In this document: piece by piece, positions 28,282-64,000 of the stretch
Numbering within the stretch: the stretch's first letter is position 1
Layout: the number at the start of each line of letters is the position of its first letter
DNA from: Candidatus Harrisonbacteria bacterium
GTDB taxonomy: Bacteria; Patescibacteriota; Minisyncoccia; UBA6257; 02-FULL-45-10c
Assembly (NCBI GenBank): GCA_016192685.1
Contig: JACPTS010000001.1
Span: 97,710 to 161,709 of the forward strand
DNA: 64,000 nucleotides
Direction of reading: 5' to 3'
Position numbers and translations under genes: made by a program
The notes under the pieces: model-generated
The model's input: the letters and a program-made list of their open reading frames with translations, nothing else
What the model was told of the DNA's origin: nothing
Database searches by the model: none

Positions 28282-28968
28282 CTATCGTTTAATAGCGCGA
28301 AAAACTATTTTTTTCATTCTTTTATGCAAAAACGACAGGAAAAATGCCGCCAGCCGGTCCAACTTATGCTTCCATCCGTAAAAACGCAAAGCATCAGCTC
28401 CTTTGTAATCTGCCACCGCAAATCCGTTTCTTTCCAATAGCTCCTTCATTTCCTCAAAATCAAAAAAGCGGTCGTCTACCGGCTGAATATTTTTCCGCGC
28501 TTTGATATACCGATCAAATAAAATCCAATTTTTATTCGGGACGGTGACAATAAATATTCCGCTGGGACGCAACACACGCCTTACTTCTTCCAAAGCTTTA
28601 TCAAAATCTAAAAGATACGGGAAGACATCCACCATTACCACAAAATCAAACGAGTTATCGGGAAAAGGCATCTGTTCAATATCCGCTTTTAAAATCTTGG
28701 CTTCGGGCACTAAGCTTTTTGCCATAGCAATCAGCCGCTCGGATAAATCAATGCCGGTTAAACTTCTGATATTTCTGCCGCCTCGTTTTTGAATATTTTT
28801 TAACACCACTCCCTGCCCCACTCCGGCTTCTAAAATATCGCCGTGCCAATCCGGCTCAATATCCAAAACTTCATTATAAAATTCCTCCGGCAAACGCATT
28901 TTCTCGGCAATCGCATCATAACCTTCTCCGATATCTTTTTTAGTGACAATAGAACGGTCAATTGGCAT
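28282..28968 (-). CDS. class I SAM-dependent methyltransferase
   Basis: 228 aa. Motif I ILEAGVGQG, then an acidic beta-2 end and the typical post-I/II spacing. Confidence 0.75.
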   Translation of the reverse strand: MPIDRSIVTKKDIGEGYDAIAEKMRLPEEFYNEVLDIEPDWHGDILEAGVGQGVVLKNIQKRGGRNIRSLTGIDLSERLIAMAKSLVPEAKILKADIEQMPFPDNSFDFVVMVDVFPYLLDFDKALEEVRRVLRPSGIFIVTVPNKNWILFDRYIKARKNIQPVDDRFFDFEEMKELLERNGFAVADYKGADALRFYGWKHKLDRLAAFFLSFLHKRMKKIVFRAIKR

Positions 28969-30091
28969 GCTTTTTATTATAGAAATCCAAAATTAATTTT
29001 TCAAAAGTTCTCTCGTAATTTTCCATGGTGTATGATTTAACCATTTCCACGCCGGCTTTTCCCATTCTCTCTCTCGCCGCGCCATCGCGAAGCAAAATTA
29101 AAATTTTATCCGCCAGTTCCGCGGAATTTGCCGGCGGCACCGCAAAACCGGTTTCCCCATTCTTCACAAAAATCGGAATGTCCCCGATCGTAGTGGACAC
29201 TACCGGCTTTCCAAAACTCAATGCTTCCATAATCACAAAAGGCATATCGGTCCTAGTAGACGGATCAACGAAAATATCCGCAATCGGCAAAATATTTTCA
29301 ATGTCCGATTTGCCAAGAAATAATCCGGGAAATAAAACTCTATCTTCCAACTTGAGACTTGAGACTTGAGACTTGAGACTTTCTTCCAGCGGCCCCCAAC
29401 CGACTATTAAAAAATAAGCATTTGGAAATTTTTCCAAAACCAGCTTAGCGGCATCAATCAGATATTTATGCCCCTTTTCCGGAACCAATCGGCTGATCGT
29501 CAAAACAACCATAGCATCCTTTGGCAATTCTAAATCCTTGCGGATTAAATCCGGATTTCTCCCCTTAGATTTATCCACAAAAGACGGCGCGTACATGGTT
29601 ATAAATTTTTCCAAAGGAATTTTTTCCTGCTTAACGGTAAAAAATTTAGCCGCGTCCGAATCCGTGATTATTTTGTCAGTCCATTTGGACAAAATCCAAT
29701 CCATCCAAATCTGCCAGCGATGCTTATCTTCATATATATTATGCTCGTGAATGATAATCACCGGAACTCTCATGATTATCGCGGCCAGACGAACAATCAA
29801 ATTAGCGGAAAAAAGCGCGGTAACTGCCACGTCAAATTTCTCTTTCCGCAAAAAAATGAATAATTTTGTCCAGGCGGCTAAATCAAACAAGGATCGAAAA
29901 TTCAGCCGCTTCCAATAATCATCCGGCAAAACAATTTTTTCCTCAAAAGTGGCGCTTGGTTTCTCAGGAAACAAAGTTAAAAGATACGGCTCAAATTTTC
30001 CCCTATCCACAACGGGCAATTGATTTACCAATAATTTTTCCGCCCCGCCAACCGATAGACGGCCAATGGCAAAAAGTATTTTCTTACGCAT
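28958..30091 (-). CDS. glycosyltransferase family 4 (GT-B)
   Basis: GT4 architecture with a C-terminal EALSFGKPVV...E-x7-E-like region. The start is assigned to the internal Met (MRKKILFAIGRL), which removes the overlap with the downstream gene; the ORF track extends to 30130. Contains the 7-bp repeat tract at 29350-29381. Confidence 0.78.
   Translation of the reverse strand: MRKKILFAIGRLSVGGAEKLLVNQLPVVDRGKFEPYLLTLFPEKPSATFEEKIVLPDDYWKRLNFRSLFDLAAWTKLFIFLRKEKFDVAVTALFSANLIVRLAAIIMRVPVIIIHEHNIYEDKHRWQIWMDWILSKWTDKIITDSDAAKFFTVKQEKIPLEKFITMYAPSFVDKSKGRNPDLIRKDLELPKDAMVVLTISRLVPEKGHKYLIDAAKLVLEKFPNAYFLIVGWGPLEESLKSQVSSLKLEDRVLFPGLFLGKSDIENILPIADIFVDPSTRTDMPFVIMEALSFGKPVVSTTIGDIPIFVKNGETGFAVPPANSAELADKILILLRDGAARERMGKAGVEMVKSYTMENYERTFEKLILDFYNKKHAN
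29350..29381. repeat. heptanucleotide tandem repeat (acttgag, about 4.5 copies) inside the GT4 coding sequence
   Basis: Read directly: aacttgagacttgagacttgagacttgagactt. The 7-nt unit is not a multiple of 3, so copy-number change would frameshift. Confidence 0.9.
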
Positions 30092-31139
30092 AAAGATTTC
30101 CGGTTCTACCGGTAATAGTAAAGTTATCATCTATGTCTTGGAGAGCGGTTTTCCTACTATTATATATGCCGGAATAACCGAGCGCCATTAAAATCCGCTG
30201 TTCTTTAAGTATTTCTTCGGCTGTTATGGAAGTCGGTTTTTTGCGGGCAAGAGACTCCCGCAATTCCGATATCGCCGTAATTGTTCCGCTTAATCCCTTT
30301 TTGATTTTAATATTTCTGATTTTTCCGTTATTATCTTTAAGGCGCAAACTTCTGCCGTCAGACATTATCCAGATCTCTCCTCTTTCGCAAATAAGCCCGG
30401 TGTTTCTGCCGTCCCTGTCGGTTATTAATCCGGAAACTCCGTTTTTAAATTTTACCAATCCAAAATCCAAAACCGGGTCCAAATCAATTTTTTTATTATT
30501 AACATCCTTTTTATTAAATTTAAAAGAAGATTGCGCGTAAGCAACTTCCGAATTATCAGCAAAGTAATTTACTAAATCTACCGAGTGGGGATGAGTCCAC
30601 ATTAACGATGACTTCCCGAATTCAATAATTATCCTATTTAATTTTCCCAAGCGCCCGGATTGGATTATTTTTTTTGTTTGTTGGTAAACCGACGAATAAC
30701 GCCGAACAGCCCCGTAAGAAATTGCTACCCGATTTTTCTGAAGTGCCCTTACCGCTTTTTTGGCATCAGCCAAATTAATGGCTAATGGCTTTTCAATATG
30801 CATTCCTTTAATCCCATGATTGGCCGCGTAGATAATTATATCCGGCCGTTCGGCGGTTCTGGTGGCAATCGTAATAATATCCGGCGATTGCTCGGCAATC
30901 ATCTTTTTAAAATCAGTATAGATATTTTTAACTTTATGCGATTGGCCCGCTTTTTGGGCCAATTCCAAATTAAGATCGCAAACCGCGATTAATTCCACTC
31001 CGGGAGCCGCGCGAATCGCCGCGCAGTGATTTACCGGAAATTCACTGGCCGGTGAAATTTCTCCCGCAACTCTTTTAGTGAAAGCCCCGATGCGGCCGCA
31101 GCCGATAACCGCGGCTTTAATGCTTTTTTGTTTTCCCAT
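30084..31139 (-). CDS. Gfo/Idh/MocA-family NAD(P)-dependent oxidoreductase
   Basis: 351 aa. N-terminal AAVIGCGRIG Rossmann motif and EKPLA consensus. Confidence 0.85.
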   Translation of the reverse strand: MGKQKSIKAAVIGCGRIGAFTKRVAGEISPASEFPVNHCAAIRAAPGVELIAVCDLNLELAQKAGQSHKVKNIYTDFKKMIAEQSPDIITIATRTAERPDIIIYAANHGIKGMHIEKPLAINLADAKKAVRALQKNRVAISYGAVRRYSSVYQQTKKIIQSGRLGKLNRIIIEFGKSSLMWTHPHSVDLVNYFADNSEVAYAQSSFKFNKKDVNNKKIDLDPVLDFGLVKFKNGVSGLITDRDGRNTGLICERGEIWIMSDGRSLRLKDNNGKIRNIKIKKGLSGTITAISELRESLARKKPTSITAEEILKEQRILMALGYSGIYNSRKTALQDIDDNFTITGRTGNLYA

Positions 31140-32205
31140 ACGATAATTTCCGCCAATCTAATAAATAAGTGACTGCCTTCCCATTTCTGGATAATAGTTT
31201 CTGATAAGCGCGCGTTATTTGATCAGCCGGATAGATTCCTGATATTAAATAGTTAGGATTTAATTTCTTTTTGGAAATATCGTTGAGGATTTTTCGGCAA
31301 TTTTTTTGCAAAGTCTTAAACTCCGGTTCGCGTTGACCGGGATTATTTCCCAAGTCCGCGGAAATAATATTGATTTTCCTCGCATAAAAATATCGCGGGT
31401 CTAAAGGATTAAATTTAGGAGCCCCCTCGGTCCTCCCGGGAAAACCAAGAACCGAAATAATACCGTTTTTCCGCGGGAGCCGCAAAGCGATTTTCCAATC
31501 CGACCAGGTATTGGATGTGGTTACGACAATATCAGCTCCTTTCCCGTTAAAATATTTTTTGACCTTTTGCTCAATATCTTTATCGGTTTTCAACAAGGCG
31601 CTGTGAGCGCCTAATTTTTTTGCCAAACGCAATTTTGATTTGCTCGCCGATAATGCCGCGATACGGGCATTAAATAATTTAGCCTGCGCTACGGCGGTTA
31701 GTCCAAGCGTTCCAAGCCCGATAACCGCCACTTTGAAATCTTTTTTAATTTTCCCATTAGTAAGCGCAACGCGGCCAAGATTATAAAGATAAGCAAGCGC
31801 CGCCTGTTCCGGAGCAACCGAATTTGGAACGCGCGCTAAAATTTCAGAAGCTGGCATTTTAAAGACACTGCGATGCGACTGATCCGTAAGTATCAAATCT
31901 CCAGGTTTAAAATCCGCAACTTTTTTTCCAACATATAAAATTTTAGCCGCATTGCAATAGCCGAGCAAGCGCGGATATATTTTACCCGGACGAAGCGGTG
32001 AATCGCCCTTATACGCGGCCACTTCCGTTCCCGGAGAAATAGCGGTTATTACGGTTTGGGCAATAATTTCCGAAGGTTTTAATTTATCGCTATCTATAAC
32101 AACGGGATGGAAAAATATTTTTTTTGGCTTTTTAAGTTCTACAAATGAACCGAAAAATTTCATACCCATATCATTGAAGTTTTGGCCATTTTTCAAATCT
32201 TTCAA
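31117..32205 (-). CDS. MDR-family (alcohol/sorbitol-dehydrogenase-like) oxidoreductase
   Basis: GroES-like N-terminal domain plus Rossmann VAVIGLGTLGLTAV. The start may be the internal Met (MGMKFFG, about 32169), which would remove the 35-nt overlap. Confidence 0.7.
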   Translation of the reverse strand: MKDLKNGQNFNDMGMKFFGSFVELKKPKKIFFHPVVIDSDKLKPSEIIAQTVITAISPGTEVAAYKGDSPLRPGKIYPRLLGYCNAAKILYVGKKVADFKPGDLILTDQSHRSVFKMPASEILARVPNSVAPEQAALAYLYNLGRVALTNGKIKKDFKVAVIGLGTLGLTAVAQAKLFNARIAALSASKSKLRLAKKLGAHSALLKTDKDIEQKVKKYFNGKGADIVVTTSNTWSDWKIALRLPRKNGIISVLGFPGRTEGAPKFNPLDPRYFYARKINIISADLGNNPGQREPEFKTLQKNCRKILNDISKKKLNPNYLISGIYPADQITRAYQKLLSRNGKAVTYLLDWRKLSYGKTKKH

Positions 32206-32752
32206 AAGATTGGACAGATTCCCTGCCGTTTATCATTTCTTGCTCATAGCATAAGCGCATTTTATTTTCCTTATCAGCTTTATTTATTTCAACTGATTTA
32301 TCAGCTACGAAAGGACGGATACCTAATTCAGTCGTTCCTGGCACTTCAAACATCCATACTTCCTTGGGAGTGATAGTTCTGTATGGCCGGCAAGCCACCA
32401 TGACCGCCTCGGAAACCAACCTATGATCTTTGTTCAAATCCCCGATAAAATTCGTATAAACAATATCGGGTTTATGCTTTTGCACCGCGGCTTCAGCGAT
32501 GCTTATAAGTTTTTTTATCGGAAGAGCATCTAACTCTTGATCGGCCAGATTTTCATTGGCATATTCAGCATTTAATAAATTAGCCAGCTTTTTCATCCCC
32601 TCAAACTGTTTTTCGTCCCGGCCTCCGGTGAACCACTGAAAATTGATTTTATCTCCAGCCTCTGAGTGTTTAAGCAGAACTCCTAAACATCCAAACGCCT
32701 CATCGTCAGGATGAGCGGAAATAACCAAAACACTTTTCTTATTTTCTTTCAT
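32171..32752 (-). CDS. PIG-L/LmbE-family N-acetylglucosaminyl deacetylase
   Basis: 193 aa. N-terminal VLVISAHPDDEAFG signature. Confidence 0.8.
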   Translation of the reverse strand: MKENKKSVLVISAHPDDEAFGCLGVLLKHSEAGDKINFQWFTGGRDEKQFEGMKKLANLLNAEYANENLADQELDALPIKKLISIAEAAVQKHKPDIVYTNFIGDLNKDHRLVSEAVMVACRPYRTITPKEVWMFEVPGTTELGIRPFVADKSVEINKADKENKMRLCYEQEMINGRESVQSFERFEKWPKLQ

Positions 32753-33462
32753 TATTTTTTTAAATCTTTTTTTGTAATATTGCCTTCAAAAATTATCTTC
32801 GGACTATTCGGACCCTCATTCAACAGCAAATCCCAAAGACTCATATATGGAACAAAATCCCCCCAAAGTTGGTTATAAGCCGGGTGCTTATAATCTTGAA
32901 AATATAATCCTATGTTGTCCCGCTTAAATGCCTCAGCATCAATATAATCCCGGCCCAATCCGCCGGAAACATAAAGATTGCTTTTCAATCCCTTGCAAAT
33001 ATCCAATACCAGCTCATTTTTTTTGCTTTCATATTTTGGCAAATCCGAAGCTTTGATTATTTTTGTATCTATCCCCAGCGCCGAGTTAAACATCAAAAGC
33101 TGTTCATAGCATAAATCAGAAATATATTTAAAATCTTTTTTATAAAAATCATCAATAATCGGGGAAAATTCATTCCAATATTTCGCTTTTTTATAATTCA
33201 GTTCCAGGGCCTTTTGGTGTTTTTTTTTCCAGGATTGGTCCGCGATTTCTATATCTTTAATCGGCTTGTCAAAATGGCCTTTTAATTTTACCGGCACCGT
33301 AAGCCAAACCGGGCCATTGGCGGTTTTAATTTTATTCCTATTTATAAAACTATTTTTCTCAAACTGCGTGGTGTCAAAAAATACGAAAGTATCCGACAGC
33401 CCGATTTTATGGAAATAACCAAGCCAAGGCGAATAAGCCGGCTGATGAATTGATAAAATCAT
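32752..33462 (-). CDS. WbqC-family protein
   Basis: 236 aa. N-terminal ILSIHQPAYSPWLGYFHKI is characteristic of WbqC-like proteins in O-antigen clusters. Contains an A10 tract. Confidence 0.65.
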   Translation of the reverse strand: MILSIHQPAYSPWLGYFHKIGLSDTFVFFDTTQFEKNSFINRNKIKTANGPVWLTVPVKLKGHFDKPIKDIEIADQSWKKKHQKALELNYKKAKYWNEFSPIIDDFYKKDFKYISDLCYEQLLMFNSALGIDTKIIKASDLPKYESKKNELVLDICKGLKSNLYVSGGLGRDYIDAEAFKRDNIGLYFQDYKHPAYNQLWGDFVPYMSLWDLLLNEGPNSPKIIFEGNITKKDLKK

Positions 33463-34148
33463 AAGGATTTCCTGGCCAAAATTATAAATTCATCATATTC
33501 CATAAATTTACCTTTTATATTCTTTAAAGAATGGCGCATTATATTTTCTAATCTGAATTTTTTAAATAATTCATTAATTTCACCAAGGTTAAAAAAATGC
33601 GCTAAGCCGGCGCGATAAAAGCTGCCTTCTTTAAAATTATTATAAGTATTTTTTCCTATTTTTTTACCGTATTTCTTATCCGGGTGATATTGGCTATAGG
33701 CAAAACTTATGAACAATCCGCCGGGCTTAAGCGATCTAAACACCTCATTCAATGCAACTACAATATCTGGTAAACAATTGGCGTAAATGCTTTCCCGGTC
33801 AATAATAATGTCAAAAAAATTATCAGGATAAGGCAAATTAAGAAAATCTCCTTGCAAAAAATCACCTTTTAAATGCCATTTTGAAAATCTTTCCTTACAA
33901 GCTCTGACAGCGGAATCTGACCCGTCCAGGCCAAAAACTTTAAAGCCGCTCTCGGCTAAAAATTTGGAGTTGTTGCCGGCCCCGCAGCCCAGATCTAAAA
34001 CTTTTATTTTGGATCTTTTTTCTCGCGGGATGGAAAAAAAATTCCTTGCTACGATACTTACCAAAATGTCATAAGGATAAAAATTAAGCTGGCGGCCCTT
34101 TGAATACACTTTCTTTTCCCAAACCTGTTGGTTAGATTTTTTTATCAT
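33459..34148 (-). CDS. class I SAM-dependent methyltransferase
   Basis: 229 aa. Motif I VLDLGCGAGNN. Confidence 0.8.
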   Translation of the reverse strand: MIKKSNQQVWEKKVYSKGRQLNFYPYDILVSIVARNFFSIPREKRSKIKVLDLGCGAGNNSKFLAESGFKVFGLDGSDSAVRACKERFSKWHLKGDFLQGDFLNLPYPDNFFDIIIDRESIYANCLPDIVVALNEVFRSLKPGGLFISFAYSQYHPDKKYGKKIGKNTYNNFKEGSFYRAGLAHFFNLGEINELFKKFRLENIMRHSLKNIKGKFMEYDEFIILARKSL

Positions 34149-35190
34149 GTTTAAAATATTTATATAAGACAGCTCTAATATATTTAATCTGCTTCCCTGA
34201 TAAGCTTGGGTAAATTGGCAAAGACAGGGTTGTTTTGGCCATTTCTTCGCTTACCGGATAATTTTTAGAAGGTAATCCTAAATAATTATGCAGTAATTCA
34301 TATCTTTCTATGGGGACAATTGTTTTAATTTTATTTTTTAAAAAATAATTTTGCAGCCGGCGGGGATTGCTTATTTTTAATATAAAACGGAAAAAATTGG
34401 GTTTAGTTAAACTATTTTTCTTAGGAAATATAATTTCGGGCGTATTCTTTGAATATGCATAGGCAATTTTCTGTCTTTTTTTTAAAAAAAATGGAAGTTT
34501 TTTAAGCTGAGCCCTGCCTATAGCGGCCTGCAGATCGGACATCTGGAAATTAAATCTCGGTTTATAATTCCTGCGGCAATCAAACTCCCGATAATCTTTA
34601 ATTTTCGCTATTAAATTTTTATTTTGGGAAAACACCATTCCCCCATAGCCGGTAGTCATCATCTTGGACGCGTAAAAAGAAAAAATCGCGATATCGCCGA
34701 ATGTACCGACATATTTATTATTAAATTTAGAACCCAGCGCTTGAGCGCAATCTTCAATTATCGGTATTCCCAAATTTAGAAACTTGCGCGTATCAGCCGG
34801 ATAACCGAAAGTATGGGTAATTATTATCGCTTTAGTTCTTCTGTTAACTTTTTTTACCGTCTCAAAATAAGAAAGATTTAAATTTTCAATATCAACTAAA
34901 ACCGGTCTGGCTCCAGCCATAAAAATCGCGTTAAGAACCGCCGAGCAAACATAAGTCGGTAAAATGACTTCGTCTCCCTTGCCGATACCCAAAGAAATCA
35001 GTGCCAGATAAAGAGCCGCTGTCCCGCTGGAAACCGCTGCCGCCTGCCCGGGCTTTTTAAATAAAAATCCGCTGAACTCATCTTCAAACTTTTTTACTTC
35101 GCTTCCCTGCGCTACCCAGCCGGATTTTATAACTCTAGCCGCAGCATCTATTTCTTCTTTGCCTAAAGTCGGTTTATTGTGAGGAATCAT
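34132..35190 (-). CDS. DegT/DnrJ/EryC1/StrS-family PLP-dependent sugar aminotransferase
   Basis: 352 aa. N-terminal SGWVAQGSEVKKFEDEF and a PLP-lysine region (FSFYASKMMTTG). Confidence 0.85.
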   Translation of the reverse strand: MIPHNKPTLGKEEIDAAARVIKSGWVAQGSEVKKFEDEFSGFLFKKPGQAAAVSSGTAALYLALISLGIGKGDEVILPTYVCSAVLNAIFMAGARPVLVDIENLNLSYFETVKKVNRRTKAIIITHTFGYPADTRKFLNLGIPIIEDCAQALGSKFNNKYVGTFGDIAIFSFYASKMMTTGYGGMVFSQNKNLIAKIKDYREFDCRRNYKPRFNFQMSDLQAAIGRAQLKKLPFFLKKRQKIAYAYSKNTPEIIFPKKNSLTKPNFFRFILKISNPRRLQNYFLKNKIKTIVPIERYELLHNYLGLPSKNYPVSEEMAKTTLSLPIYPSLSGKQIKYIRAVLYKYFKHDKKI

Positions 35191-52165: not shown

Positions 52166-52169
52166 TTTA

Positions 52170-52886: not shown

Positions 52887-52898
52887 TGATATTACAAC

Positions 52899-53810: not shown

Positions 53811-53880
53811 AATATCGTAATTATATAACCCGCAAACAATACAAATAGTAATAAAAAAATACCCGTATTCTACAGGTATT

Positions 53881-55646: not shown

Positions 55647-55735
55647 ATCTCCTTTTATATTAGAACTATAAAAGATAACAAAATTTCCCGCATATCAGTC
55701 ACTGCGTCATAAACGAGCTACCTATCTGCCATGCG

Positions 55736-55757
55736 GCCTGCCTGCCGGCAGGCAGGC
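55736..55757. other. perfect 22-bp GC-rich palindrome in an intergenic region
   Basis: gcctgcctgccggcaggcaggc, between an SDR gene end and the aldolase gene start. Confidence 0.8.
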
Positions 55758-55772
55758 AACTACGGAGAAAAA

Positions 55773-56573: not shown

Positions 56574-56593
56574 AAATATTTTAATTATTAATT

Positions 56594-57397
56594 TTAACGC
56601 ATCACTGCGCCGCCGTCCACGAATAATATTTGTCCGGTGATATTTTTTGCTTCATCAGAGGCAAGAAAAACCGCCGCCATCCCGATGTCTTCCGGAGTTT
56701 GTTCTCTTTTTAAAGGAATCAAATCGCTTACATGCTTATTAAAAATCTGCCGCGGAGACATTTTTTTATATTTTTCCGGCCATCGCTCAACCAGCTGAGG
56801 CGCGAACCCTTCCCATAAAGGCGTCCAAACCAATCCCGGCGCGATGGCATTCACCGTAACGCCATACGGAGCGAATTCGTGGGCAAGAATTTGGGTAAAA
56901 GTCGCTATGCCGACCTTGGAAACGCTGTAATGGGGTTTAGTAAGTCCGGGCATAAATCCGGCAATAGAAGACATATTAATAATCCTACCTGATTTACGTT
57001 CCTGAAAATGCGGCGCGATTGCTTTAGCGGCATAAAAAACCGGCTTCACGTTAACATCCCAGACCAAATCCCAATCTTCTTCAGTATTATTAGTAAATGG
57101 CATTCCCAACTTTCCGGTAACACCAACGTTATTCACCAAAATATCAATTCCGCTAAAATCATCAATAACTCTCTTAATCGCTTTCCGCGTTTCTTGTTCT
57201 TTAGTAACGTCCACTTGTAATGCCAGTCCGCGAGTACCATAAGAATCCGCGCAAAATTTCATAACCTCTTCCGCTTGTTTTATATCACGGTCAGCAATAA
57301 TCGCGATTGCCCCCTCTTTTGCCATACAATTCACAATGCCTTTTCCAATGCCGTTGGCGCCGCCGGTTATAATTGCTACTTTATTTTTGAGTCTCAT
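56594..57397 (-). CDS. SDR-family oxidoreductase (tandem paralog)
   Basis: Start placed at the internal Met (MRLKNKVAIITGGANGIGKG); the ORF track extends to 57427. Shares stretches of up to ~85 bp identical to the adjacent paralog. Confidence 0.85.
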   Translation of the reverse strand: MRLKNKVAIITGGANGIGKGIVNCMAKEGAIAIIADRDIKQAEEVMKFCADSYGTRGLALQVDVTKEQETRKAIKRVIDDFSGIDILVNNVGVTGKLGMPFTNNTEEDWDLVWDVNVKPVFYAAKAIAPHFQERKSGRIINMSSIAGFMPGLTKPHYSVSKVGIATFTQILAHEFAPYGVTVNAIAPGLVWTPLWEGFAPQLVERWPEKYKKMSPRQIFNKHVSDLIPLKREQTPEDIGMAAVFLASDEAKNITGQILFVDGGAVMR

Positions 57398-57402
57398 TAT
57401 AA

Positions 57403-58155
57403 TTATTTTACTTGCTTTTCTTCGCAATGCGCGTTCATTAAGGCAAATTTCGGATTTTCATCTAAATATGTAAGCACCTCCAGAACGCTGATAATCTGCC
57501 CTCCGCCCTTATAAAATTTTTTATAGATCAATTCCATTAGCTCAAAATCTTCCGGAAAATCCACGGTCAGGCGATAATTCCGCGCGTATTTCGGCGGAGC
57601 AATAACTATCGGACCGATTTTAAATTCTCCTTTTTTATTGTCCATAATATAAGGATCTACATGCTCTTTGTCGTAAGCCGAAGTCGCTTCCCGAAACGCT
57701 TTCTCAATCGCCCGGAAAGAAAATATCTCGCAGTCAAGGCCGCGCGGAAAAGTTCTCTCGCCGGAAAATACATTACTGATGTAATCATAATTATCTTTTT
57801 TAAACGCCTCTAAACATAAATCAATAATTTTAGGGTCAATTAACGGGCAATCAGCAGTGATGCGAACAACAGTATCACCGGCAGTAGCGCCATATTTTTT
57901 TGCCGTTTCATAATAACGCTCCAGAACATTTTCCACCGATCCCCGAAAATATAAAAAATTATTTTCCCGGCAAAATTTTTCCGTTGCGTCATCTTCCGGC
58001 GCAATCGTGGTGGCTACTATAACTTTATCTATATAACGAGAACGCCTTACCCGGTTAACCACGTGCCAGAGCTGGGGCTTGCCCGCTAAATCTTTTAAGA
58101 TCTTTCCCGGCAGGCGGGTAGAACCCATCCGAGCCTGAATAATAGCTAAAATCAT
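57403..58155 (-). CDS. cytidylyltransferase (PseF/SpsF/acylneuraminate cytidylyltransferase family; third copy)
   Basis: 250 aa. LAIIQARMGSTRLPGKILKDLAGKP. Confidence 0.8.
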   Translation of the reverse strand: MILAIIQARMGSTRLPGKILKDLAGKPQLWHVVNRVRRSRYIDKVIVATTIAPEDDATEKFCRENNFLYFRGSVENVLERYYETAKKYGATAGDTVVRITADCPLIDPKIIDLCLEAFKKDNYDYISNVFSGERTFPRGLDCEIFSFRAIEKAFREATSAYDKEHVDPYIMDNKKGEFKIGPIVIAPPKYARNYRLTVDFPEDFELMELIYKKFYKGGGQIISVLEVLTYLDENPKFALMNAHCEEKQVK

Positions 58156-59294
58156 TAAAAAGTTTTAATTATTTCAATCAACTTTTTAACAATAAATTTC
58201 TGGTCTTTGGATTTTAAATCGGGAAAAATCGGCAAAGAAATCGCGGCTTCATAATACGCTTCAGCTTTTGGACACAGGCCTTTTTTAAATCCCAAAGATT
58301 GATAATAGGGATGCCAATAAACCGGCAGATAATGAACCTGGACTCCGATGCCCGCCTCTCTTAATTTTTTAAAAATGCCGGAACGTTTTTTCACCAACGC
58401 GCCTTTTAATCTGATTACATAAATATGCCAAGATGAAGAAAAATCTTTATTGTCTGACGGAAGTTCTAATTTATCAGAAAATTTCTTGAAAGCTTTGTTA
58501 TAAGCTGCGGCAATTTTTTTTCTTGCTTTTATAAATTTATCCAATCTTTTAAGCTGGGAAATTCCCAGCGCCGCCTGAATATCGGTAATCCGGTAGTTAT
58601 ATCCCAGTTCCTGCATCTCGTGATACCAATCTCCATGGGATTTCATTTTGAATTTCTCCGGGTCGCGGACAATTCCATGATGCCGGAAAACTTTCATTTT
58701 TTCATAATAATCTTTGTTATCGGTAAGCACCGCTCCTCCTTCCCCGGTAGTAATGGATTTTACCGGATGAAAACTAAATGCCGTCATGTCAGCCACAGAG
58801 CCGATTTTTTTTCCTTTATAACTTGCTCCTAACGCGTGACAGCCGTCTTCCACTAAAACTAAATTATGTTCACGCGCGATTTTTTTAAATTCTTCTAATT
58901 TCGCCGGCAAACCGGCAAAATCCACCACAGAAATAATTCTGGTTTTAGAATTTATTTTTTTTACCGCTTCCTTGGGATCCAGATTCAAATCTTCCGCAAT
59001 ATCGGCAAAAACCGGCTTAGCGCCTAAATAAAGACCGGGATTGGCAGTGGCGGCAAAAGTCAGTGGAGTAGTTATGAATTCGTCTCCAGATTTTAATCCG
59101 GCGGCGAAATAAGCGGCGTGAAGCGCGGCCGTGCCGCTGGAAAAAATCACGGCATATTTAGCGCCGCAATATTTGGCCAAAGCCTCCTCAAATTCGGCTA
59201 TTTTGGGACCTTGGCTTAACCAATCCGATTTCAAAACTTTCGTAACTGCTTCAATATCCGATTTATCAATTGACTGATGACCGTAAGGTATCAT
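58155..59294 (-). CDS. DegT-family PLP-dependent aminotransferase (PseC-like; third copy)
   Basis: 379 aa. MIPYGHQSIDKSDIEAV...LSQGPKIAEFE. Confidence 0.85.
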   Translation of the reverse strand: MIPYGHQSIDKSDIEAVTKVLKSDWLSQGPKIAEFEEALAKYCGAKYAVIFSSGTAALHAAYFAAGLKSGDEFITTPLTFAATANPGLYLGAKPVFADIAEDLNLDPKEAVKKINSKTRIISVVDFAGLPAKLEEFKKIAREHNLVLVEDGCHALGASYKGKKIGSVADMTAFSFHPVKSITTGEGGAVLTDNKDYYEKMKVFRHHGIVRDPEKFKMKSHGDWYHEMQELGYNYRITDIQAALGISQLKRLDKFIKARKKIAAAYNKAFKKFSDKLELPSDNKDFSSSWHIYVIRLKGALVKKRSGIFKKLREAGIGVQVHYLPVYWHPYYQSLGFKKGLCPKAEAYYEAAISLPIFPDLKSKDQKFIVKKLIEIIKTF

Positions 59295-59306: not shown

Positions 59307-60284
59307 TTATACAAAATTAGCAAGGTCTTCCTTAGTCAATTCCCTTGCTGCATTGCTGGCATAATTAAAATTTTCAGGAACATTAGGAAAATCTTTAAAA
59401 TGCGATTTATCCCACCAATCATGGCTCGGTTCAACTAGATAATATTTGCCAATGTCCCTCGCTCTCCGCGCCTCATCTTCGGTAAGAAGCATTTCATGCA
59501 ATTTTTCCCCGGGCCTAGCGCCGATAATTTTAACTTTGCAATTGGGGACCAAAACCGAAATTAAATTCTTAACTTTCATTGCCGATAATTTTGGCACAAC
59601 GATCTCTCCGCCCTTCATTAAGCGTAAAGTATCCAAAACAAGATCTACTCCTTGATCCAAAGTAATCCAAAATCTAGTCATATCTTCGTGAGTGAGAGTA
59701 ACTTCGCCATTTTTTTTCTGTTCTTGTAAAACTTCGGTGATACTTCCGCGGCTGCCGACTACGTTTCCGTAACGCACTGCGCTAAAAATCGGTTTTTTCT
59801 CTATTCCGCTGTAAGAATTGGCCGCGATTAAAAGCTTTTCCGCGCAAAGCTTAGTGGCGCCGTAAAGATTTATCGGATTTACCGCTTTATCAGTGGAAAC
59901 CAGCACAACTTTTTTCACCCCATTATCCAAAGCCGCGTCAATGACATTTTGCGTGCCCAAAACATTGGTTTTAACCGCTTCCAACGGATTAAACTCCAGC
60001 ATCGGAACCTGTTTAAGGGCGGCCGCGTGGACTACCACATCCACCCCCCGAAAAGCTCGCTGTAATCTGGCAAGGTCGCGGACGTCTCCTAAAAAAAATC
60101 TTAATTTATTTCCCGGATTGCCGAATTTCCTCTGCATGGCATGCTGTTTAAATTCATCGCGGCTAAAAACAATAACCCGCTTGCAATCGCCGTCTTTCAA
60201 AAGAAACTCAACAAATTTTTGGCCGAAAGAACCGGTACCGCCGGTAACAAGCACGGACTTATCTTTCAAAAAATTTATATCCAT
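59307..60284 (-). CDS. UDP-GlcNAc 4,6-dehydratase (PseB/FlaA1 family; second copy)
   Basis: 325 aa. VLVTGGTGSFG, HAAALKQVP, VSTDKAVNP. Confidence 0.85.
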   Translation of the reverse strand: MDINFLKDKSVLVTGGTGSFGQKFVEFLLKDGDCKRVIVFSRDEFKQHAMQRKFGNPGNKLRFFLGDVRDLARLQRAFRGVDVVVHAAALKQVPMLEFNPLEAVKTNVLGTQNVIDAALDNGVKKVVLVSTDKAVNPINLYGATKLCAEKLLIAANSYSGIEKKPIFSAVRYGNVVGSRGSITEVLQEQKKNGEVTLTHEDMTRFWITLDQGVDLVLDTLRLMKGGEIVVPKLSAMKVKNLISVLVPNCKVKIIGARPGEKLHEMLLTEDEARRARDIGKYYLVEPSHDWWDKSHFKDFPNVPENFNYASNAARELTKEDLANFV

Positions 60285-60383: not shown

Positions 60384-61328
60384 ATGCAATGCGGCATTTG
60401 CAAAAAAAATTCCAATCCAATATTTAAAGAAAAAAGCGGGAATTATTCTCTATATGAATGCCCGCTCTGCGGCGGCCAATTTTGGAACCCGATGAAAAAT
60501 CCGGGGGCGGAGTGGTATGAAAAAGATATCCGGTATTCTTTCCGGAATAAAAATCCACTGAAAACTCCGGAGGTCAACCATCGGGAATTTCTGCGCGATT
60601 TGCCAGCGTCCAAAGGAAAACTTTTAGATATCGGAATGGGTACGGGTAATTTTCTGGCCGCGGCAGTAGCCAATGGCTATGACGGCTATGGAACTGATTT
60701 TGACAATGATGCCATTGAAACGGCCAAAGAATTTTTCGGCCTCCAAAATGTTTTCCCGCTGAATACCGAAGAGGCAATCAAAAAATTCGGTCCGGGATAT
60801 TTTGACGTCATTACGCTCTTTGAAGTTCTGGAACACCTGGAAGACCCCTCCGAATCCCTGGAAAAAATAAAGGTTCTTTTGAAAAAAGGCGGGTATCTGG
60901 CAATCAGTGTGCCTTACCGCGGATCTTCAAAATTATTTAAAGCCCACGACATACCGCCGCGCCATCTGACCAGATGGAGCGAAAAATCCATGGAAAACTT
61001 TTTAAACTCGCATCAATTTTCCGTAACGCGGATGAAAGTCATTCCGGTTCCCTTTTCTTATTTAATCACCAAATATCATTTTTGGTACGAGGGCATTTTC
61101 AGTTTCGGCGCGGTAGAAAAACTTACCTCGCCGAAAAAAACGCAAAAGGGAGAAACTATTGCCAATAATTTCAAAAAAAACTACAGGAAAATCAAGATGC
61201 TGCAATCGCTGGCGCGTCTGAAAGATTATCTGCTTTTTTCCATCCCCGCGGCAATTTTATACCTGCGCCTGCTATTGAATAAAAAGGCGGGACTTGACCT
61301 TTATGTTCTTGCGCAATTTAAAGATTAA
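60384..61328 (+). CDS. class I SAM-dependent methyltransferase with an N-terminal Cys4 zinc-ribbon
   Basis: 314 aa. CGIC...CPLCGG, then motif I LLDIGMGTGNF. Confidence 0.75.
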   Translation: MQCGICKKNSNPIFKEKSGNYSLYECPLCGGQFWNPMKNPGAEWYEKDIRYSFRNKNPLKTPEVNHREFLRDLPASKGKLLDIGMGTGNFLAAAVANGYDGYGTDFDNDAIETAKEFFGLQNVFPLNTEEAIKKFGPGYFDVITLFEVLEHLEDPSESLEKIKVLLKKGGYLAISVPYRGSSKLFKAHDIPPRHLTRWSEKSMENFLNSHQFSVTRMKVIPVPFSYLITKYHFWYEGIFSFGAVEKLTSPKKTQKGETIANNFKKNYRKIKMLQSLARLKDYLLFSIPAAILYLRLLLNKKAGLDLYVLAQFKD

Positions 61329-62413
61329 ACTCTTCGGATAGTTTTCTGCCAAACTTTCATTCCTTCTAAATAAGATGAAATATAATTTTTCTGATGTTCA
61401 TCCAATTTTTTATCTTGCGACAAAAATTTTTCTAAGCCGAAAATAAGCTCTCCATAGCAATCCCCGTAATTTTTTCCCTTCATTTTTATTTTCTGAAGCC
61501 AATCGCAAAAAAGATCGCTCAAAATCATCCCGTCCCGCTCTTTATCAAAATCCTTAAAATAATTATGCGGGTTGCGGTCTTGATAAACCAACGGATTGCC
61601 AAAAGAAATGTAGTGCCCCAAATAATCGGCAATCGCCTTAATTACGTAAGCCGCCCAAATATCATCATACCTTCCGACCATCGGGCTTAAAAAATAAGCC
61701 GGAATAATTTCCCGCGCCAGCGCCGTATTTTGGGAATTAAAAGGCGACCAGGTGCCTTTTCCCAAAGCAAAATTTTCTTTTCGCTTATAACTCAGAACAT
61801 TAATCGGATTTGTTAATCTGGTGACCGCGTCAATATCCGGGTCCCCAAGCCAAAATCCGGCATTAACCACGATTTTTCCTTTTTTCTTTTTAACGGAAAG
61901 CTTTTCTTTCAGCCAGCGCTTCCCCATCGGAAAACCGCGATGATAAAAAGGCGCATTTTTTTCTTCTTTTAAAAAACCGCAGACATTCAGCCAGCCGGTG
62001 GAAGAACGGATAAAATCCATTTTTTGTTCCGTGCCCACAATGCTGTTCTGGCCGACAAAATCCCCGCTGGCAAAAAAATTGTCGTCATCAATAGTGATTA
62101 TCAATTCCGCGCCCTGTTCATAAGCAAATAAAATCCCTATATTCCTCCGCTGGATGGAATTAAATACCAGATGCTTTTCCAGCTCCGGATATTTTTTCAG
62201 ATAAACCGCCTGATCGGCGACATTAAAAAAATGGATTGGGACATCAGTTTTTCTACTAAGTTCTTTACAGAATATTTTTGCTTCCAAAGGAGTTTTTTTA
62301 TCTCCGACAACAATGCATTCTGTATCTTTATGCCCATGCTTTTTAAAATTATTGATATAATCTTTTAAAAGGACTGGAACATTTATCGTGGTTGTGACTA
62401 TCGCTGTTTTCAT
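61325..62413 (-). CDS. GT75/RGP-like protein (reversibly glycosylated polypeptide / UDP-arabinopyranose mutase family)
   Basis: 362 aa. ITIDDDNFFA (cf. plant RGP TIDDDCFVA) and RYDDIWAAYVIKAIADYLG (cf. RGP RYDDMWAGWC.KVICDHLG). Confidence 0.6.
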   Translation of the reverse strand: MKTAIVTTTINVPVLLKDYINNFKKHGHKDTECIVVGDKKTPLEAKIFCKELSRKTDVPIHFFNVADQAVYLKKYPELEKHLVFNSIQRRNIGILFAYEQGAELIITIDDDNFFASGDFVGQNSIVGTEQKMDFIRSSTGWLNVCGFLKEEKNAPFYHRGFPMGKRWLKEKLSVKKKKGKIVVNAGFWLGDPDIDAVTRLTNPINVLSYKRKENFALGKGTWSPFNSQNTALAREIIPAYFLSPMVGRYDDIWAAYVIKAIADYLGHYISFGNPLVYQDRNPHNYFKDFDKERDGMILSDLFCDWLQKIKMKGKNYGDCYGELIFGLEKFLSQDKKLDEHQKNYISSYLEGMKVWQKTIRRV

Positions 62414-62429: not shown

Positions 62430-63458
62430 TCAAATTCTTTTTTTAGCCATTTCTAAAACTCGACTCATGCCCTCTTCCAAACTGACTTTCGGTTTCCATC
62501 CCAAACTATAAATTTTCTTGGGATCGGCATATCTGGATTGGACGCCGACCGGTTTATCTAAAAGCTGTTTTATAGTTGGATTATAACCTTCTATTTTTGC
62601 CAATATTTTTATAATTTCATTAAAACTTCTCAATTCGCCGGTGCCGATATTCACCCCGCTGCCATCGGAAATTTTATCCAAGACAACAAACATCGCCTCA
62701 ACGCAATCGTCTATATAAACAAAATCTCTGCCCTGCTCGCCGGTTCCCCAAACCGTTATAGGATTTTCTCTTTTAGCAATGCGCGCGGCAATGGCCGGGA
62801 CCGGATAAGTCAAATCCTGGTCTTCGCCGTAACCGGAAAATGGCCGGACGCAGGCCACGTGTAGGCCGTAATGTTTTGCCGCCAAAGTGCTTAAATATTC
62901 TCCCGATAACTTGCTCCAGCCATAAGTCATATCCGGCTGGCCAAGATTCCCGCCAAAAGAAATCACTTCTTCCGGCAAAGCAATATGCTTTTCTTTAGAT
63001 TGCAGATTAACCGGATAGGCGGCGCTGGAACTCGCGTACATAATTCTGGAAATTTTATCTTTATTCCGCGTTGCCCAGACAAAAAATAATGAATCAATCG
63101 CGAAGTCAGTCGCCACCAGCACGGGATCGCCATCAATTAATAATCTGCCGCCGACAATAGATGCCAAATGAAAAACATCGGAAAATTCCGGTAACTTTAT
63201 TTGAGAGCGGCTTTTTAATTGATCTAAGAAAAAATCCAACGCGTCTTTTTCTATAAATACCAGTTCTTGGCCGCCTTTTTTATAAACCGAATATTCCGGC
63301 TCCATTGTTTTTTCAAATTCCAAAAGCCATTTATCCGGATGCCAGCCGGTAAATAGGTTATCCACCACCCAAACCGACTCGCCGCGATTTAAAAGATATT
63401 TAATTAAATGTCGGCCGACAAATCCGCAACCACCGGTAACTAAAACTGGATTTTTCAT
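62430..63458 (-). CDS. NAD-dependent nucleotide-sugar epimerase/dehydratase (extended SDR)
   Basis: 342 aa. VLVTGGCGFVGRHL with the YxxxK catalytic pair (YGWSK). Confidence 0.85.
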   Translation of the reverse strand: MKNPVLVTGGCGFVGRHLIKYLLNRGESVWVVDNLFTGWHPDKWLLEFEKTMEPEYSVYKKGGQELVFIEKDALDFFLDQLKSRSQIKLPEFSDVFHLASIVGGRLLIDGDPVLVATDFAIDSLFFVWATRNKDKISRIMYASSSAAYPVNLQSKEKHIALPEEVISFGGNLGQPDMTYGWSKLSGEYLSTLAAKHYGLHVACVRPFSGYGEDQDLTYPVPAIAARIAKRENPITVWGTGEQGRDFVYIDDCVEAMFVVLDKISDGSGVNIGTGELRSFNEIIKILAKIEGYNPTIKQLLDKPVGVQSRYADPKKIYSLGWKPKVSLEEGMSRVLEMAKKRI

Positions 63459-64000
63459 AAATTTTCTTTTTTAGATAATAACACTTTAAAAGCTATTTTA
63501 AAATACTTAAAATTGGCAAAAAAAGTATTCTGAGATTCGCCTTCCTTGCGGGCATGCCACTGGCAAGGAATTTCTTTTATCCGGGCGCCGAGCCGAAGCG
63601 GCTTTAAAATGGTTTCCAGTAAAAACGGATGGCGCAATTCTTCCCAGCGAATTTTTTGGACTAAATCAGTTTTAAAAATTCGGAATCCATAAGTTAAATC
63701 GGAAAGATTCGTCCAATATAACCATTGGAAAAATTTCTGAAAAATAAAATTCAAAAAGAATTTTATCGGATTATAAGAACGAAATCCTCCGGCACCTCCC
63801 ATCCAGCGAGATGCCGTGACAATATCGTAATTTCCAGTATTGGCTTCGTTGATAAGATTTTTAACGACATGCGGATCGGTCTCCAAATCACTTGCCATCA
63901 TAAGAACCCATTTGCCGCTTGCTAAACCAAAAGCATCTCTCATTGCCCCGCCAAGATAAGGCAATTTTTGCCGGTAATCCTTAATGAAATCGCCGTATTG
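63455..64000 (-). CDS. glycosyltransferase family 2 (DPM1-like), N-terminus beyond the window end
   Basis: The C-terminal two-thirds of a GT2 domain is visible (ASDLETDP ... TASRW ... GFRIFK). The ORF track starts at Met 63964, only 36 nt from the window edge, and the DxD-containing N-terminal part of the domain is not seen. The track is blind beyond the edge, so the N-terminus is probably outside the window. Confidence 0.65.
   Translation of the reverse strand, partial: QYGDFIKDYRQKLPYLGGAMRDAFGLASGKWVLMMASDLETDPHVVKNLINEANTGNYDIVTASRWMGGAGGFRSYNPIKFFLNFIFQKFFQWLYWTNLSDLTYGFRIFKTDLVQKIRWEELRHPFLLETILKPLRLGARIKEIPCQWHARKEGESQNTFFANFKYFKIAFKVLLSKKENL

Follow-up and report, generated by a model that had tools for sequence, protein, structure and literature searches.

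A probable modular surface-glycan island with several nonulosonic-acid gene sets in a Candidatus Harrisonbacteria genome

The window analyzed here, a 64-kb stretch of a 608-kb contig from Candidatus Harrisonbacteria, a lineage of the candidate phyla radiation (CPR; Patescibacteria), carries a long run of glycan genes that we regard, with moderate confidence, as a modular surface-glycan island. Judging from its gene content, the island would probably specify two or more distinct nonulosonic acids of the 5,7-diamino type and, again probably, a third CMP-activated acidic sugar, all of which would then be transferred and exported. Three sets of genes underlie this proposal: module B (37850–43103), which resembles a self-contained six-gene pathway; modules C (57.4–60.3 kb) and A, which together may form a split second pathway; and a cassette (48575–57427) in which a NeuA-like cytidylyltransferase and a KdsC-type phosphatase would stand at the center of the supply of a third ulosonic acid.

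Between 28,282 and 63,964, 38 long open reading frames (ORFs) were translated and scanned against Pfam and NCBIfam. All but one of them (37 of 38) lie on the minus strand, exact 1- or 4-nt overlaps occur at 13 of the 37 ORF junctions, and every gene named in the initial annotation of this DNA was recovered at the position given for it. Several other overlaps of 11–47 nt resemble over-called starts. The suspicion of a CPR-like genome was borne out by exact protein matches to a Candidatus Harrisonbacteria metagenome-assembled genome (MAG; MBI3046022–MBI3046063, locus tags HYY86_), and the central claim of that annotation, that the organism makes more than one CMP-activated nonulosonic acid by noncanonical routes, is supported by the inventory, by the age of the paralogs and by the absence of PseG, LegG and GNAT-type genes described below. 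Loci fetched for comparison are cited by their L numbers.

Divergent synthases and paralogs

Both of the synthases in the island, NeuB_35623 of module A (35623–36681, minus strand) and NeuB_42093 of module B (42093–43103, minus strand), match the NeuB domain PF03102 (273.2 and 268.7 bits) and the SAF domain (44.4 and 47.1 bits) over their full length and are hence members of the NeuB family. A KDO-8-P or DAHP synthase-like identity, or loss of the SAF domain, which the initial annotation had named as findings that would overturn its assignment, is ruled out by the same Pfam matches. Neither protein reaches the cut-off of PseI (TIGR03586, 340.25; NeuB_35623 302.1, NeuB_42093 275.5) or of NeuB_NnaB (TIGR03569, 399.65; 357.9 and 363.9, respectively), both scoring better on the latter, Neu/Leg-type model than on the former. 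The top solved match of NeuB_35623 is Bacillus subtilis SpsE (1vli), and both enzymes are about equidistant from the solved SpsE, Neisseria meningitidis NeuB and Campylobacter jejuni PseI, a comparison that does not separate their specificities. NeuB_42093 has a 68% identical ortholog in the metagenome contig L009, and its nearest other NeuBs by distance come from loci with a NeuC-like gene.

We placed the two synthases in a bootstrapped neighbor-joining tree of 41 NeuBs from the fetched loci, labelled by gene context. Both fall outside the NeuC-context clade (99% bootstrap), outside the clade whose loci carry haloacid dehalogenase-type (HAD) phosphatase and enolase-superfamily genes (100% bootstrap) and outside the pair formed by the PseG/H-context NeuB of L022 and the second NeuB of L028. 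By distance they are nearest to the NeuC-context (Leg-type) synthases, with deep nodes of the tree at only 20–46% bootstrap. Because the model scores are below cut-off, the distances to solved enzymes are about equal and the deep nodes are weak, the stereochemistry of the two products is not assignable.

PseB and PseC at equivalog level coexist in the window without a PseI-type synthase. Among the 38 ORFs, Pfam detected no Epimerase_2 (NeuC/LegG), Glyco_tran_28_C (PseG) or GNAT (PseH) domain, and tblastn searches of the 64-kb window yielded no homolog of a PseG–PseH fusion from a metagenome locus (best E 0.095) or of Escherichia coli WecB (best E 7), upholding the earlier observation that PseG/LegG homologs are lacking here and that the N-acetyltransferases are of the LbH rather than the GNAT type.

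Pairwise BLAST gave identities of 42% between the NeuBs, 41% between the dehydratases, 31–37% among the DegT aminotransferases, 29–32% among the cytidylyltransferases, 40% between the Capsule_synth proteins and 34% between the 2-hydroxyacid dehydrogenases. The sole recent duplicate is a tandem pair of short-chain dehydrogenase/reductases (SDRs), 71% identical to one another and represented by one copy in the relatives L005, L015 and L017. Because all paralogs other than the SDR pair are only 29–42% identical, they are, on sequence divergence, old and indicative of parallel pathways rather than recent copies. Recent duplication of one pathway, the other outcome that the initial annotation had entertained, is ruled out by these values for every pair except the SDRs.

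Module B and a split second pathway

Module B consists, in transcription order and entirely on the minus strand, of NeuB_42093, a 284-aa PP2C-fold protein of an uncharacterized family (41232–42086, assigned by AlphaFold2 and Foldseek), the cytidylyltransferase CT_40558 (40558–41235), a short LbH N-acyltransferase (40116–40550), a DegT aminotransferase (38884–40194) and a PseB/FnlA-like 4,6-dehydratase (37850–38887). CT_40558 is a PseF-like member of CTP_transf_3 (172.1 on the PseF hidden Markov model [HMM], cut-off 205.7) with a 76% ortholog in L009; the acyltransferase has a match to the NeuD/PglD model that is confined to the C-terminal part of the model; the aminotransferase scores 330 on the PseC HMM and 305 on the LegC HMM, both below cut-off; and the dehydratase (Polysacc_synt_2) scores 322.9 against a PseB cut-off of 407.75 and is 41% identical to true PseB. 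The longest ORF of the aminotransferase extends 79 nt into the upstream LbH gene and is some 60 residues longer at the N terminus than its homologs of 372–379 aa; its true start is probably near 40020.

The six genes, five of them for canonical enzymes and the sixth the PP2C-like gene, co-occur at 50–76% identity in the unrelated contig L009, and we consider it fairly probable that module B is a self-contained set for one 5,7-diamino nonulosonic acid. The dehydratase, the aminotransferase and the LbH N-acetyltransferase would yield an NDP-2,4-diacetamido-2,4,6-trideoxyhexose, from which the PP2C-fold protein, as a putative metallohydrolase, would release the free sugar; NeuB_42093 would condense this sugar with phosphoenolpyruvate (PEP), and CT_40558 would convert the product to its CMP-sugar. 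L009, the best relative of module B, also has a formyltransferase and PIG-L pair (10879–12494) inserted between the PP2C-like gene and the cytidylyltransferase and a B12-binding radical SAM gene upstream (6817–8166), which suggests N-formyl or C-methyl variants of the module B sugar.

The PP2C-fold gene was overlooked in the initial annotation even though it sits at the NeuC/LegG position. It has no Pfam match above cut-off (PP2C_2, PF13672, 22.4 vs. 24), and a search with its profile against the sequences of solved structures gave no match. Its AlphaFold2 model, built from 22 homologs (pLDDT 91.3, pTM 0.90), finds only PP2C-type neighbors in Foldseek (PstP, Stp1, tPphA and PPM1B; probability 1.0, TM-score 0.5–0.69), and the invariant residues of the family (E18/D19, D32-G33, D222-G223 and E273) resemble PP2C metal motifs by eye; an hhalign comparison of the profile with a PstP sequence gave a weak local match only. 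The family is small: a word-indexed search gave 26 matches, and some 250 of 1.8 billion cluster representatives match at E < 1e-30. A scan of GTDB genomes with the profile, run through a narrow pattern pre-filter, returned two loci, both from Patescibacteria, and tblastn against plasmids gave one partial match, on an unannotated Brevibacillus replicon with uninformative context.

In the window the PP2C-like gene shares 4 nt with the downstream cytidylyltransferase gene, and a gap of 6 nt separates it from NeuB; the family is found beside DegT and 4,6-dehydratase genes in six of the six loci seen and touches NeuB in three of them (the window, L009 and L010). Nine loci, which had been fetched for another purpose, share the order dehydratase, DegT, (LbH), NeuB, NeuC-like (WecB-like) and cytidylyltransferase, and it is this NeuC position, between NeuB and the cytidylyltransferase, that the PP2C-like gene fills in the window and in L009. 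From its modelled fold and its position we tentatively propose, with rather less than even confidence, that the PP2C-fold protein performs the sugar-release step otherwise carried out by PseG or LegG. In L011, a split transketolase adjoins the PP2C-like gene.

Module C encodes, on the minus strand, a PseB-type inverting UDP-GlcNAc 4,6-dehydratase (59307–60284; TIGR03589 431.5 vs. 407.75, Polysacc_synt_2 326 bits), a DegT aminotransferase of the PseC equivalog (58155–59294; TIGR03588 500.8 vs. 423.5) and the cytidylyltransferase CT_57403 (57403–58155; CTP_transf_3 126 bits), which is neither PseF-like (PseF HMM 37.9) nor KdsB-like. The best solved relative of CT_57403 is 6oew, entitled "Cytidylyltransferase" (E 1e-39), and we class it tentatively as SpsF/COG1861-like. 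Module C has no acyltransferase, hydrolase or synthase, whereas module A has genes of those kinds and lacks a dehydratase and a cytidylyltransferase. Module A, likewise on the minus strand, begins in transcription with a PduL-like phosphotransacylase of 165 aa (37343–37840) and continues with a DUF218 protein (36678–37346) immediately upstream of NeuB_35623, a short LbH acyltransferase (35174–35626) and a divergent DegT protein (34132–35190). Candidate tailoring genes follow, again on the minus strand: a methyltransferase (33459–34148), a WbqC-family protein (32752–33462), a PIG-L de-N-acetylase (32171–32752), a Zn-ADH-like protein (31117–32205) and a GFO_IDH_MocA oxidoreductase (30084–31139). 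Sequence searches against solved structures gave no relative of the DUF218 protein and no match for the WbqC protein; the Campylobacter acetamidino enzyme PtmG is presumably a member of the WbqC family.

The complementarity of their gene contents, together with SpsE as the best solved match of NeuB_35623, leads us to pair modules C and A as a probable split second pathway, SpsE being a member of the UDP-linked CMP-legionaminic acid pathway SpsM/C/D/G/E/F (PMC7439481). PseB, PseC and the SpsF-like cytidylyltransferase of module C would operate with NeuB_35623, the LbH and DUF218 proteins and a PduL-like acyl-CoA supply from module A, and the PIG-L and WbqC-family proteins, the methyltransferase and the oxidoreductases would tailor the product. 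In a host of reduced metabolism, the PduL-like protein may provide acyl-CoA from acyl phosphate for the N-acyltransferases. The PIG-L gene recurs beside NeuB and cytidylyltransferase genes in L009, L078 and L088, once next to a formyltransferase, a recurrence that fits de-N-acetylation followed by re-acylation. For this pathway and the others we infer catalytic roles beyond the family level, sugar stereochemistry, the pairing of A with C and the glycan acceptor from sequence.

The cassette and its alternative readings

The cassette, all of it on the minus strand, opens with the tandem SDR oxidoreductases (55773–56573 and 56594–57427; 215.5 and 216.5 on a glucose 1-dehydrogenase subfamily model with a cut-off of 215), which have orthologs at 49–59% identity in L095 and L096. 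Next comes a TIM-barrel protein that resembles HpcH/HpaI and may be a class II pyruvate aldolase (54858–55646; PF03328 28.8 vs. 25 bits); its AlphaFold2 model (pLDDT 95.5) has HpcH, HpaI and YfaU aldolases as top Foldseek hits (probability 1.0, TM-score ~0.6, 13–17% identity); a sequence search among solved structures gave no match for it. More than 5000 homologs of this protein exist, and six of the seven loci examined are sugar-gene settings (one of them, L097, phage-like), the seventh, L007, lacking a glycan context. A gene overlapping it by 4 nt encodes 2-hydroxyacid dehydrogenase B (53881–54861; 2-Hacid_dh_C 154 bits); the two genes stand in this order in L005, L015, L095 and L096 too, at 50–54% identity in the latter two.

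Downstream lie a putative metal hydrolase of the cyclase family (PF04199; 52899–53810), with the uncharacterized 5ibz as its sole solved relative; the NeuA-like cytidylyltransferase CT_52170 (52170–52886; CTP_transf_3 87 bits, PseF HMM 131 vs. 205.7), whose best solved relatives are NeuA 9ftb and the CMP-NeuAc synthetases 6ifd, 1qwj and 1eyr; an enolase-superfamily (MR_MLE) protein resembling acid-sugar dehydratases and epimerases (50990–52165; E 9e-104 to 2oo6/3sn0, which have no assigned function); and 2-hydroxyacid dehydrogenase A (50064–51002), similar to phosphoglycerate dehydrogenase and glyoxylate reductase, with orthologs at 43–54% in L095 and L096. The last gene (48575–50074) is a fusion of 499 aa, in which a DMT/EamA-like permease of about 10 transmembrane segments (residues 1 to ~325) precedes a KdsC-type HAD phosphatase domain (~331–496). 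Residues 340–493 match the KdsC/YrbI family TIGR01670 at 115.9 against a cut-off of 106.95, and the HAD domain bears the closest resemblance to phosphatase domains that occur in fusion with NeuA-type cytidylyltransferases, even those of NeuB–HAD–cytidylyltransferase triple fusions. The fusion is confined to close relatives. A standalone homolog of the permease occurs in L099, in the order NeuB–NeuC–DMT–cytidylyltransferase, and the permease family itself is linked, by gene neighborhood, to nonulosonic-acid genes; that it transports a CMP-sugar or a precursor is speculative.

The cassette is conserved at 73–94% identity in four related contigs (L005 and L015–L017). Its core (SDR, 2-hydroxyacid dehydrogenase A, HpcH-like protein and 2-hydroxyacid dehydrogenase B, with a NeuA-like cytidylyltransferase nearby) is found at 43–59% in the distant glycan loci L095 and L096, accompanied there by an aldehyde dehydrogenase, an SGL lactonase or a NeuB::cupin fusion (the SGL lactonase-like gene and the NeuB::cupin fusion being in L096), and the pair of enolase-superfamily and cytidylyltransferase genes recurs at 49–63% in L022, L026, L027 and L028 (57–63% for the enolase-superfamily orthologs). 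In those four loci the pair adjoins a distinct NeuB, a small KdsC-like HAD and a PanE-like 2-oxoacid reductase, and two of the four also hold a canonical Pse gene set. Gene conservation therefore indicates that the cassette is a real functional unit, because it is retained in relatives and because its core and the enolase/cytidylyltransferase pair recur elsewhere.

Several of the comparison loci have features of their own. L020 (12564–16036) and L022 (6358–7839 and 10808–12751) combine an aldehyde dehydrogenase and a transketolase-like gene with NeuB–SDR–cytidylyltransferase, and the transketolase-type genes of L020, L022 and L011 may be a source of C2 (glycolyl-type) units. Parts of a diversity-generating retroelement (bAvd and reverse transcriptase) lie directly beside the cassette-bearing glycan locus of L096 (15490–16800). 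In L097 (JAAEQR010000034.1, a MAG of the Planctomycetes–Verrucomicrobia–Chlamydiae group; 700–16800), the HpcH-like homolog stands in a block that looks like phage or prophage (YopX, T4_Y16D and many small ORFs) together with a split thiamine pyrophosphate enzyme, a methyltransferase, a radical SAM protein, an epimerase and DegT, and may represent phage-encoded sugar chemistry. A different CPR ulosonic-type set occurs in L008 (Candidatus Magasanikbacteria, MFQE01000077.1; 1844–10765), comprising a cytidylyltransferase, SDRs, AP_endonuc_2, a SIS isomerase, a NeuB without SAF, a small HAD, a cytidylyltransferase::SDR fusion, an HpcH-like protein and a carbamoyltransferase.

Class II pyruvate aldolases and acid-sugar dehydratases yield 2-keto-3-deoxy acids, the class of compounds that NeuA/KdsB-type enzymes activate. 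Because the cassette holds enzymes of types that form or reduce such acids, we favor, with confidence that is evenly balanced, the hypothesis that it supplies a third CMP-activated ulosonic acid, either a modified one or one made independently of NeuB. We are doubtful of the bolder combination in which the PP2C-fold class replaces PseG/LegG, the cassette makes an undescribed CMP-2-keto-3-deoxy acid without NeuB and the DMT permease is a bacterial counterpart of the eukaryotic CMP-sialic acid transporter; if true, it would amount to a distinct, CPR-centered biochemistry of acidic surface sugars, with glycosylation outside the cytoplasm by way of the permease.

A number of observations weigh against the overall proposal. 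Both NeuBs and two of the three cytidylyltransferases score below every NCBIfam equivalog cut-off, in addition to the weak deep nodes of the NeuB tree, and the case for pairing modules C and A consists of complementarity and of weak SpsE- and SpsF-like affinities. NeuC, PseG and PseH could lie elsewhere on the 608-kb contig, the search having covered the 64-kb window. The partners of the cassette are not fixed, since in L015 and L016 it follows a dehydratase and aminotransferase of module B type and not PseB, PseC and a cytidylyltransferase; because it follows different genes in these two of the four related contigs, the modules are evidently shuffled. In the Parcubacteria contig L013 the PP2C-like gene has no NeuB within 10 kb, and its role may be broader, different or regulatory. 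The cassette, finally, could make N-acyl substituents instead of a third sugar.

Some of these points lend themselves to alternative explanations. That there is one pathway with one sugar product, its duplicated genes being redundant or in decay, is highly improbable: the existence of paralogs and the recent SDR pair are all that speaks for it, whereas every other pair is 29–42% identical, no ORF is truncated, the domain matches run over the full length, and modules B and C are conserved separately and shuffled in other genomes. Somewhat unlikely, in our estimate, is that the PP2C-fold protein acts in regulation, as a Ser/Thr protein phosphatase, or in some other way takes no catalytic part in sugar synthesis, and that the release hydrolase is DUF218 or the product of another gene, in the island or elsewhere. 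All of its structural neighbors are protein phosphatases, L013 has the family away from NeuB, and the genome beyond the inspected window could encode a hydrolase; against this stand the tight packing of the gene between NeuB and the cytidylyltransferase, its adjacency to NeuB in three loci and linkage to DegT and dehydratase genes in all six, and the occupation of the NeuC slot by so small and specific a family. The initial annotation had read a NeuB, the KdsC-type phosphatase and a cytidylyltransferase as a Kdn/Neu5Ac-9-P route, in which one NeuB would be a 2-keto-3-deoxynononic acid (Kdn)-9-P or N-acetylneuraminic acid (Neu5Ac)-9-P synthase, as in Bacteroides and animals. The HAD domain does score above its subfamily cut-off and is closest to NeuA–HAD bifunctional proteins and even to NeuB–HAD–cytidylyltransferase fusions, CT_52170 is closest to solved CMP-Neu5Ac synthetases, and a NeuB and a HAD accompany the orthologous enolase/cytidylyltransferase pair in L022 and L026–L028. 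The well-supported HAD-associated NeuB clade, however, excludes both window NeuBs, which stand in dehydratase/aminotransferase/LbH contexts; the Kdn-9-P phosphatase equivalog NF058599 is not reached (85.7 vs. 180 bits); and the window has no gene for Man-6-P or ManNAc-6-P supply, NeuC or a kinase. The 9-phosphate route, as worded there, gained no support and is now quite improbable; its phosphatase and NeuA-like cytidylyltransferase belong instead to the conserved cassette, which that annotation had not recognized.

A more serious competitor, which we nonetheless consider unlikely, is that only two CMP-nonulosonic acids are made, that the cassette provides a hydroxy-acid (glyceroyl, lactyl, glycolyl or 3-deoxy-aldonoyl) for N5 or N7, and that CT_52170 serves one of the NeuB products. 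The nonphosphorylative route for L-rhamnose and L-fucose employs a dehydrogenase, a lactonase, an enolase-superfamily dehydratase, an HpcH aldolase and an aldehyde or keto-acid reductase, a set that the cassette enzymes match. In related loci, NeuB and a cytidylyltransferase have genes for aldehyde dehydrogenase, PanE-like reductase, SGL lactonase and a transketolase-like protein as neighbors; relatives of CT_52170 are directly beside NeuB in most loci; the PIG-L de-N-acetylase and the two LbH acyltransferases could swap acyl groups; and the genetics of N-glyceroyl and N-acetimidoyl modification has been described as an open question (PMC5378307). The cassette nevertheless lacks an acyl-activating enzyme (ligase, acyl carrier protein or ATP-grasp), holds both a sugar-acid phosphatase of KdsC type and a cytidylyltransferase, and belongs to an island whose three cytidylyltransferases and three Capsule_synth transferases suggest three donors. 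A literature search on the cassette enzyme combination and on WbqC found nothing relevant. Synthesis of a third CMP-activated ulosonic acid is hence the reading of the cassette that we retain.

Transfer, genomic setting and known systems

Candidate ulosonic-acid transferases are provided by KpsS/KpsC-like Capsule_synth proteins (PF05159), two of which are encoded between module B and the cassette (43137–44582 and 44579–46072, minus strand; 35.1 and 32.8 vs. 20 bits). A third paralog is encoded directly beyond the end of the window (L001 1990–3465; 30.9 vs. 20 bits, 28% identity), bringing their number to that of the cytidylyltransferases; each would use one CMP-donor. The PF05159 matches are partial, covering about 90–130 residues of proteins of 480–500 aa, and the BFO_1060 family model scores 26.7 against 200 bits on a Capsule_synth protein. 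The Capsule_synth group contains retaining beta-Kdo transferases and the Pse transferase KpsS1 of Acinetobacter baumannii, which use CMP donors (PMC12887879). Adjacent to these genes are a fused transmembrane and nucleotide-binding domain ABC exporter, similar to HepA, MsbA and PglK (46069–47928, minus strand; an ABC exporter also stands beside NeuB in L009, L022 and L026–L028), and a 199-aa protein of no family with an N-terminal transmembrane segment and a Pro/Ser-rich region (47950–48549, minus strand).

Farther upstream, an initiating polyprenyl-phosphate glycosylphosphotransferase (12388–13731; TIGR03025 351 vs. 295.55), a Wzx-type flippase (13806–15095) and a UDP-sugar dehydrogenase-like protein (15121–16020) are encoded on the plus strand, and a 728-aa Wzy_C + TPR protein, a candidate ligase, polymerase or O-oligosaccharyltransferase, on the minus strand (26054–28240). 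The ABC exporter, the flippase, the initiating transferase and the Wzy_C + TPR protein would assemble the glycan and deliver it to the surface. Wzy_C + TPR proteins of 730–750 aa flank the island of the window and those of L095 and L099, and because of this recurrence the giant surface proteins, or a polysaccharide, are plausible as the glycan target. The giant predicted surface proteins, both on the minus strand, comprise 2369 aa with Big_5, CarboxypepD_reg, Lamin-tail and PG_binding_1 domains (16049–23158) and 1352 aa with Lamin-tail domains (5682–9740). Between the former and the Wzy_C + TPR gene sit a 310-aa ORF with no family match (23454–24386, minus strand) and a 482-aa protein with a weak bactofilin domain (24441–25889, minus strand).

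The initial description of an island of about 36 kb was right as to the genes and too small as to the extent, since the island continues past both ends. Toward the window end, module C is followed by a methyltransferase (60384–61328, plus strand), an RGP/STELLO-like glycosyltransferase (61325–62413), an NDP-sugar epimerase/reductase (62430–63458) and a GT2 glycosyltransferase cut by the window end (63455–63964), of which L001 has a full-length copy. On this sister contig the island runs on for 10 kb or more upstream of PseC (59294), about 5 kb beyond the window end, and the extension encodes the GT2 protein, an unknown protein of 528 aa, the third Capsule_synth protein, an unknown protein of 253 aa and a fusion of GT4 and methyltransferase. 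The opposite end is marked by a GT4 glycosyltransferase (28958–30130) and a methyltransferase (28282–28968), both on the minus strand, and on that flank further glycan genes are present from 12.4 kb on. The island most similar to this one (82–91% protein identity) was located in a Candidatus Tagabacteria MAG, on a contig of 97 kb. GC content, 37–44% in the island as against 41–47% in its flanks, does not point clearly to recent transfer, and evidence of an integration site is absent because a tRNA scan of the window found no tRNA gene.

CPR organisms, with their very small genomes, are generally considered host-dependent for the majority of their building blocks. The island alone accounts for at least 6% of the 608-kb contig, and for nearer 9% with the flanking glycan genes, and its modules are shuffled between close relatives as those of O-antigen and capsule loci are; because of this shuffling, surface glycans may be a major variable interface for host attachment and phage escape. 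The island also offers candidates for sugar release without PseG or NeuC, for the genes behind unusual N-acyl or ulosonic variants in many bacteria, and for a KpsS-like transferase role in cells thought to have no outer membrane.

Among characterized systems, the Pse pathway of Campylobacter jejuni and Helicobacter pylori is matched by the window in its equivalog-level PseB and PseC, its NeuB synthase and its CTP_transf_3 cytidylyltransferases, and the logic is the same: dehydration, amination, N-acylation, release, condensation with PEP and CMP activation. The window differs in having short LbH acyltransferases instead of the GNAT PseH, no GT-B PseG, no NeuB at the PseI cut-off and no cytidylyltransferase at the PseF cut-off (best 172.1 vs. 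205.7). Of the legionaminic acid pathways, those of C. jejuni (LegB/C/H/G/I/F) and B. subtilis (SpsM/C/D/G/E/F) being GDP- and UDP-linked, respectively, the latter establishes that such routes operate in monoderm-type cells (PMC7439481). The acetyltransferases of the window share the LbH type with LegH, and its NeuBs are nearest to the synthases of dehydratase–DegT–LbH–NeuB–NeuC–cytidylyltransferase loci, but neither a NeuC-like LegG nor a PseG-like SpsG is present, the PP2C-fold gene standing in the NeuC slot, and the LegB and LegC models score at most 72.8 (cut-off 475) and 305 (cut-off 420). C. jejuni supplies GDP-GlcNAc by PtmE, PtmF and PgmL; the window has no such supply genes.

The Kdn-9-P/Neu5Ac-9-P route, as in Bacteroides thetaiotaomicron and the NeuA–HAD enzymes, shares with the window a KdsC-family HAD and a NeuA-like cytidylyltransferase, whereas the HAD of the window is fused to a DMT permease and not to a cytidylyltransferase, and has HpcH-like and enolase-superfamily proteins and two 2-hydroxyacid dehydrogenases as partners. 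With KpsS/KpsC (GT107) and KpsS1 of A. baumannii (GT118), the island has in common three Capsule_synth paralogs alongside CMP-sugar genes and an ABC exporter; here, however, the host is a CPR organism, a group generally held to have no outer membrane, and KpsM/T/E/D were not found in the window. Teichulosonic acids and nonulosonic-acid-capped protein O-glycans are wall polymers and protein glycans on cells, and the teichulosonic acids of Actinobacteria and the S-layer and flagellin O-glycans, with Tannerella forsythia among the examples, can be likened to the predicted product as acidic surface glycans containing ulosonic acids, the present one being known from its genes alone. In the Tannerella glycan, Pse or Leg bears extensive N-modification for which the responsible genes are not known (PMC5378307). 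In the open-access literature, we found no paper that connects CPR/Patescibacteria with the biosynthesis of nonulosonic acids, be they pseudaminic, legionaminic or sialic acid. Loci for several nonulosonic acids are familiar from Campylobacter, Leptospira, Vibrio and other bacteria, and this kind of locus is therefore not new; what sets the present one apart is the CPR host, the lack of PseG, PseH, PseI-type and NeuC genes in the window together with the PP2C-fold gene in the NeuC slot, and the uncharacterized cassette with its DMT::phosphatase fusion.

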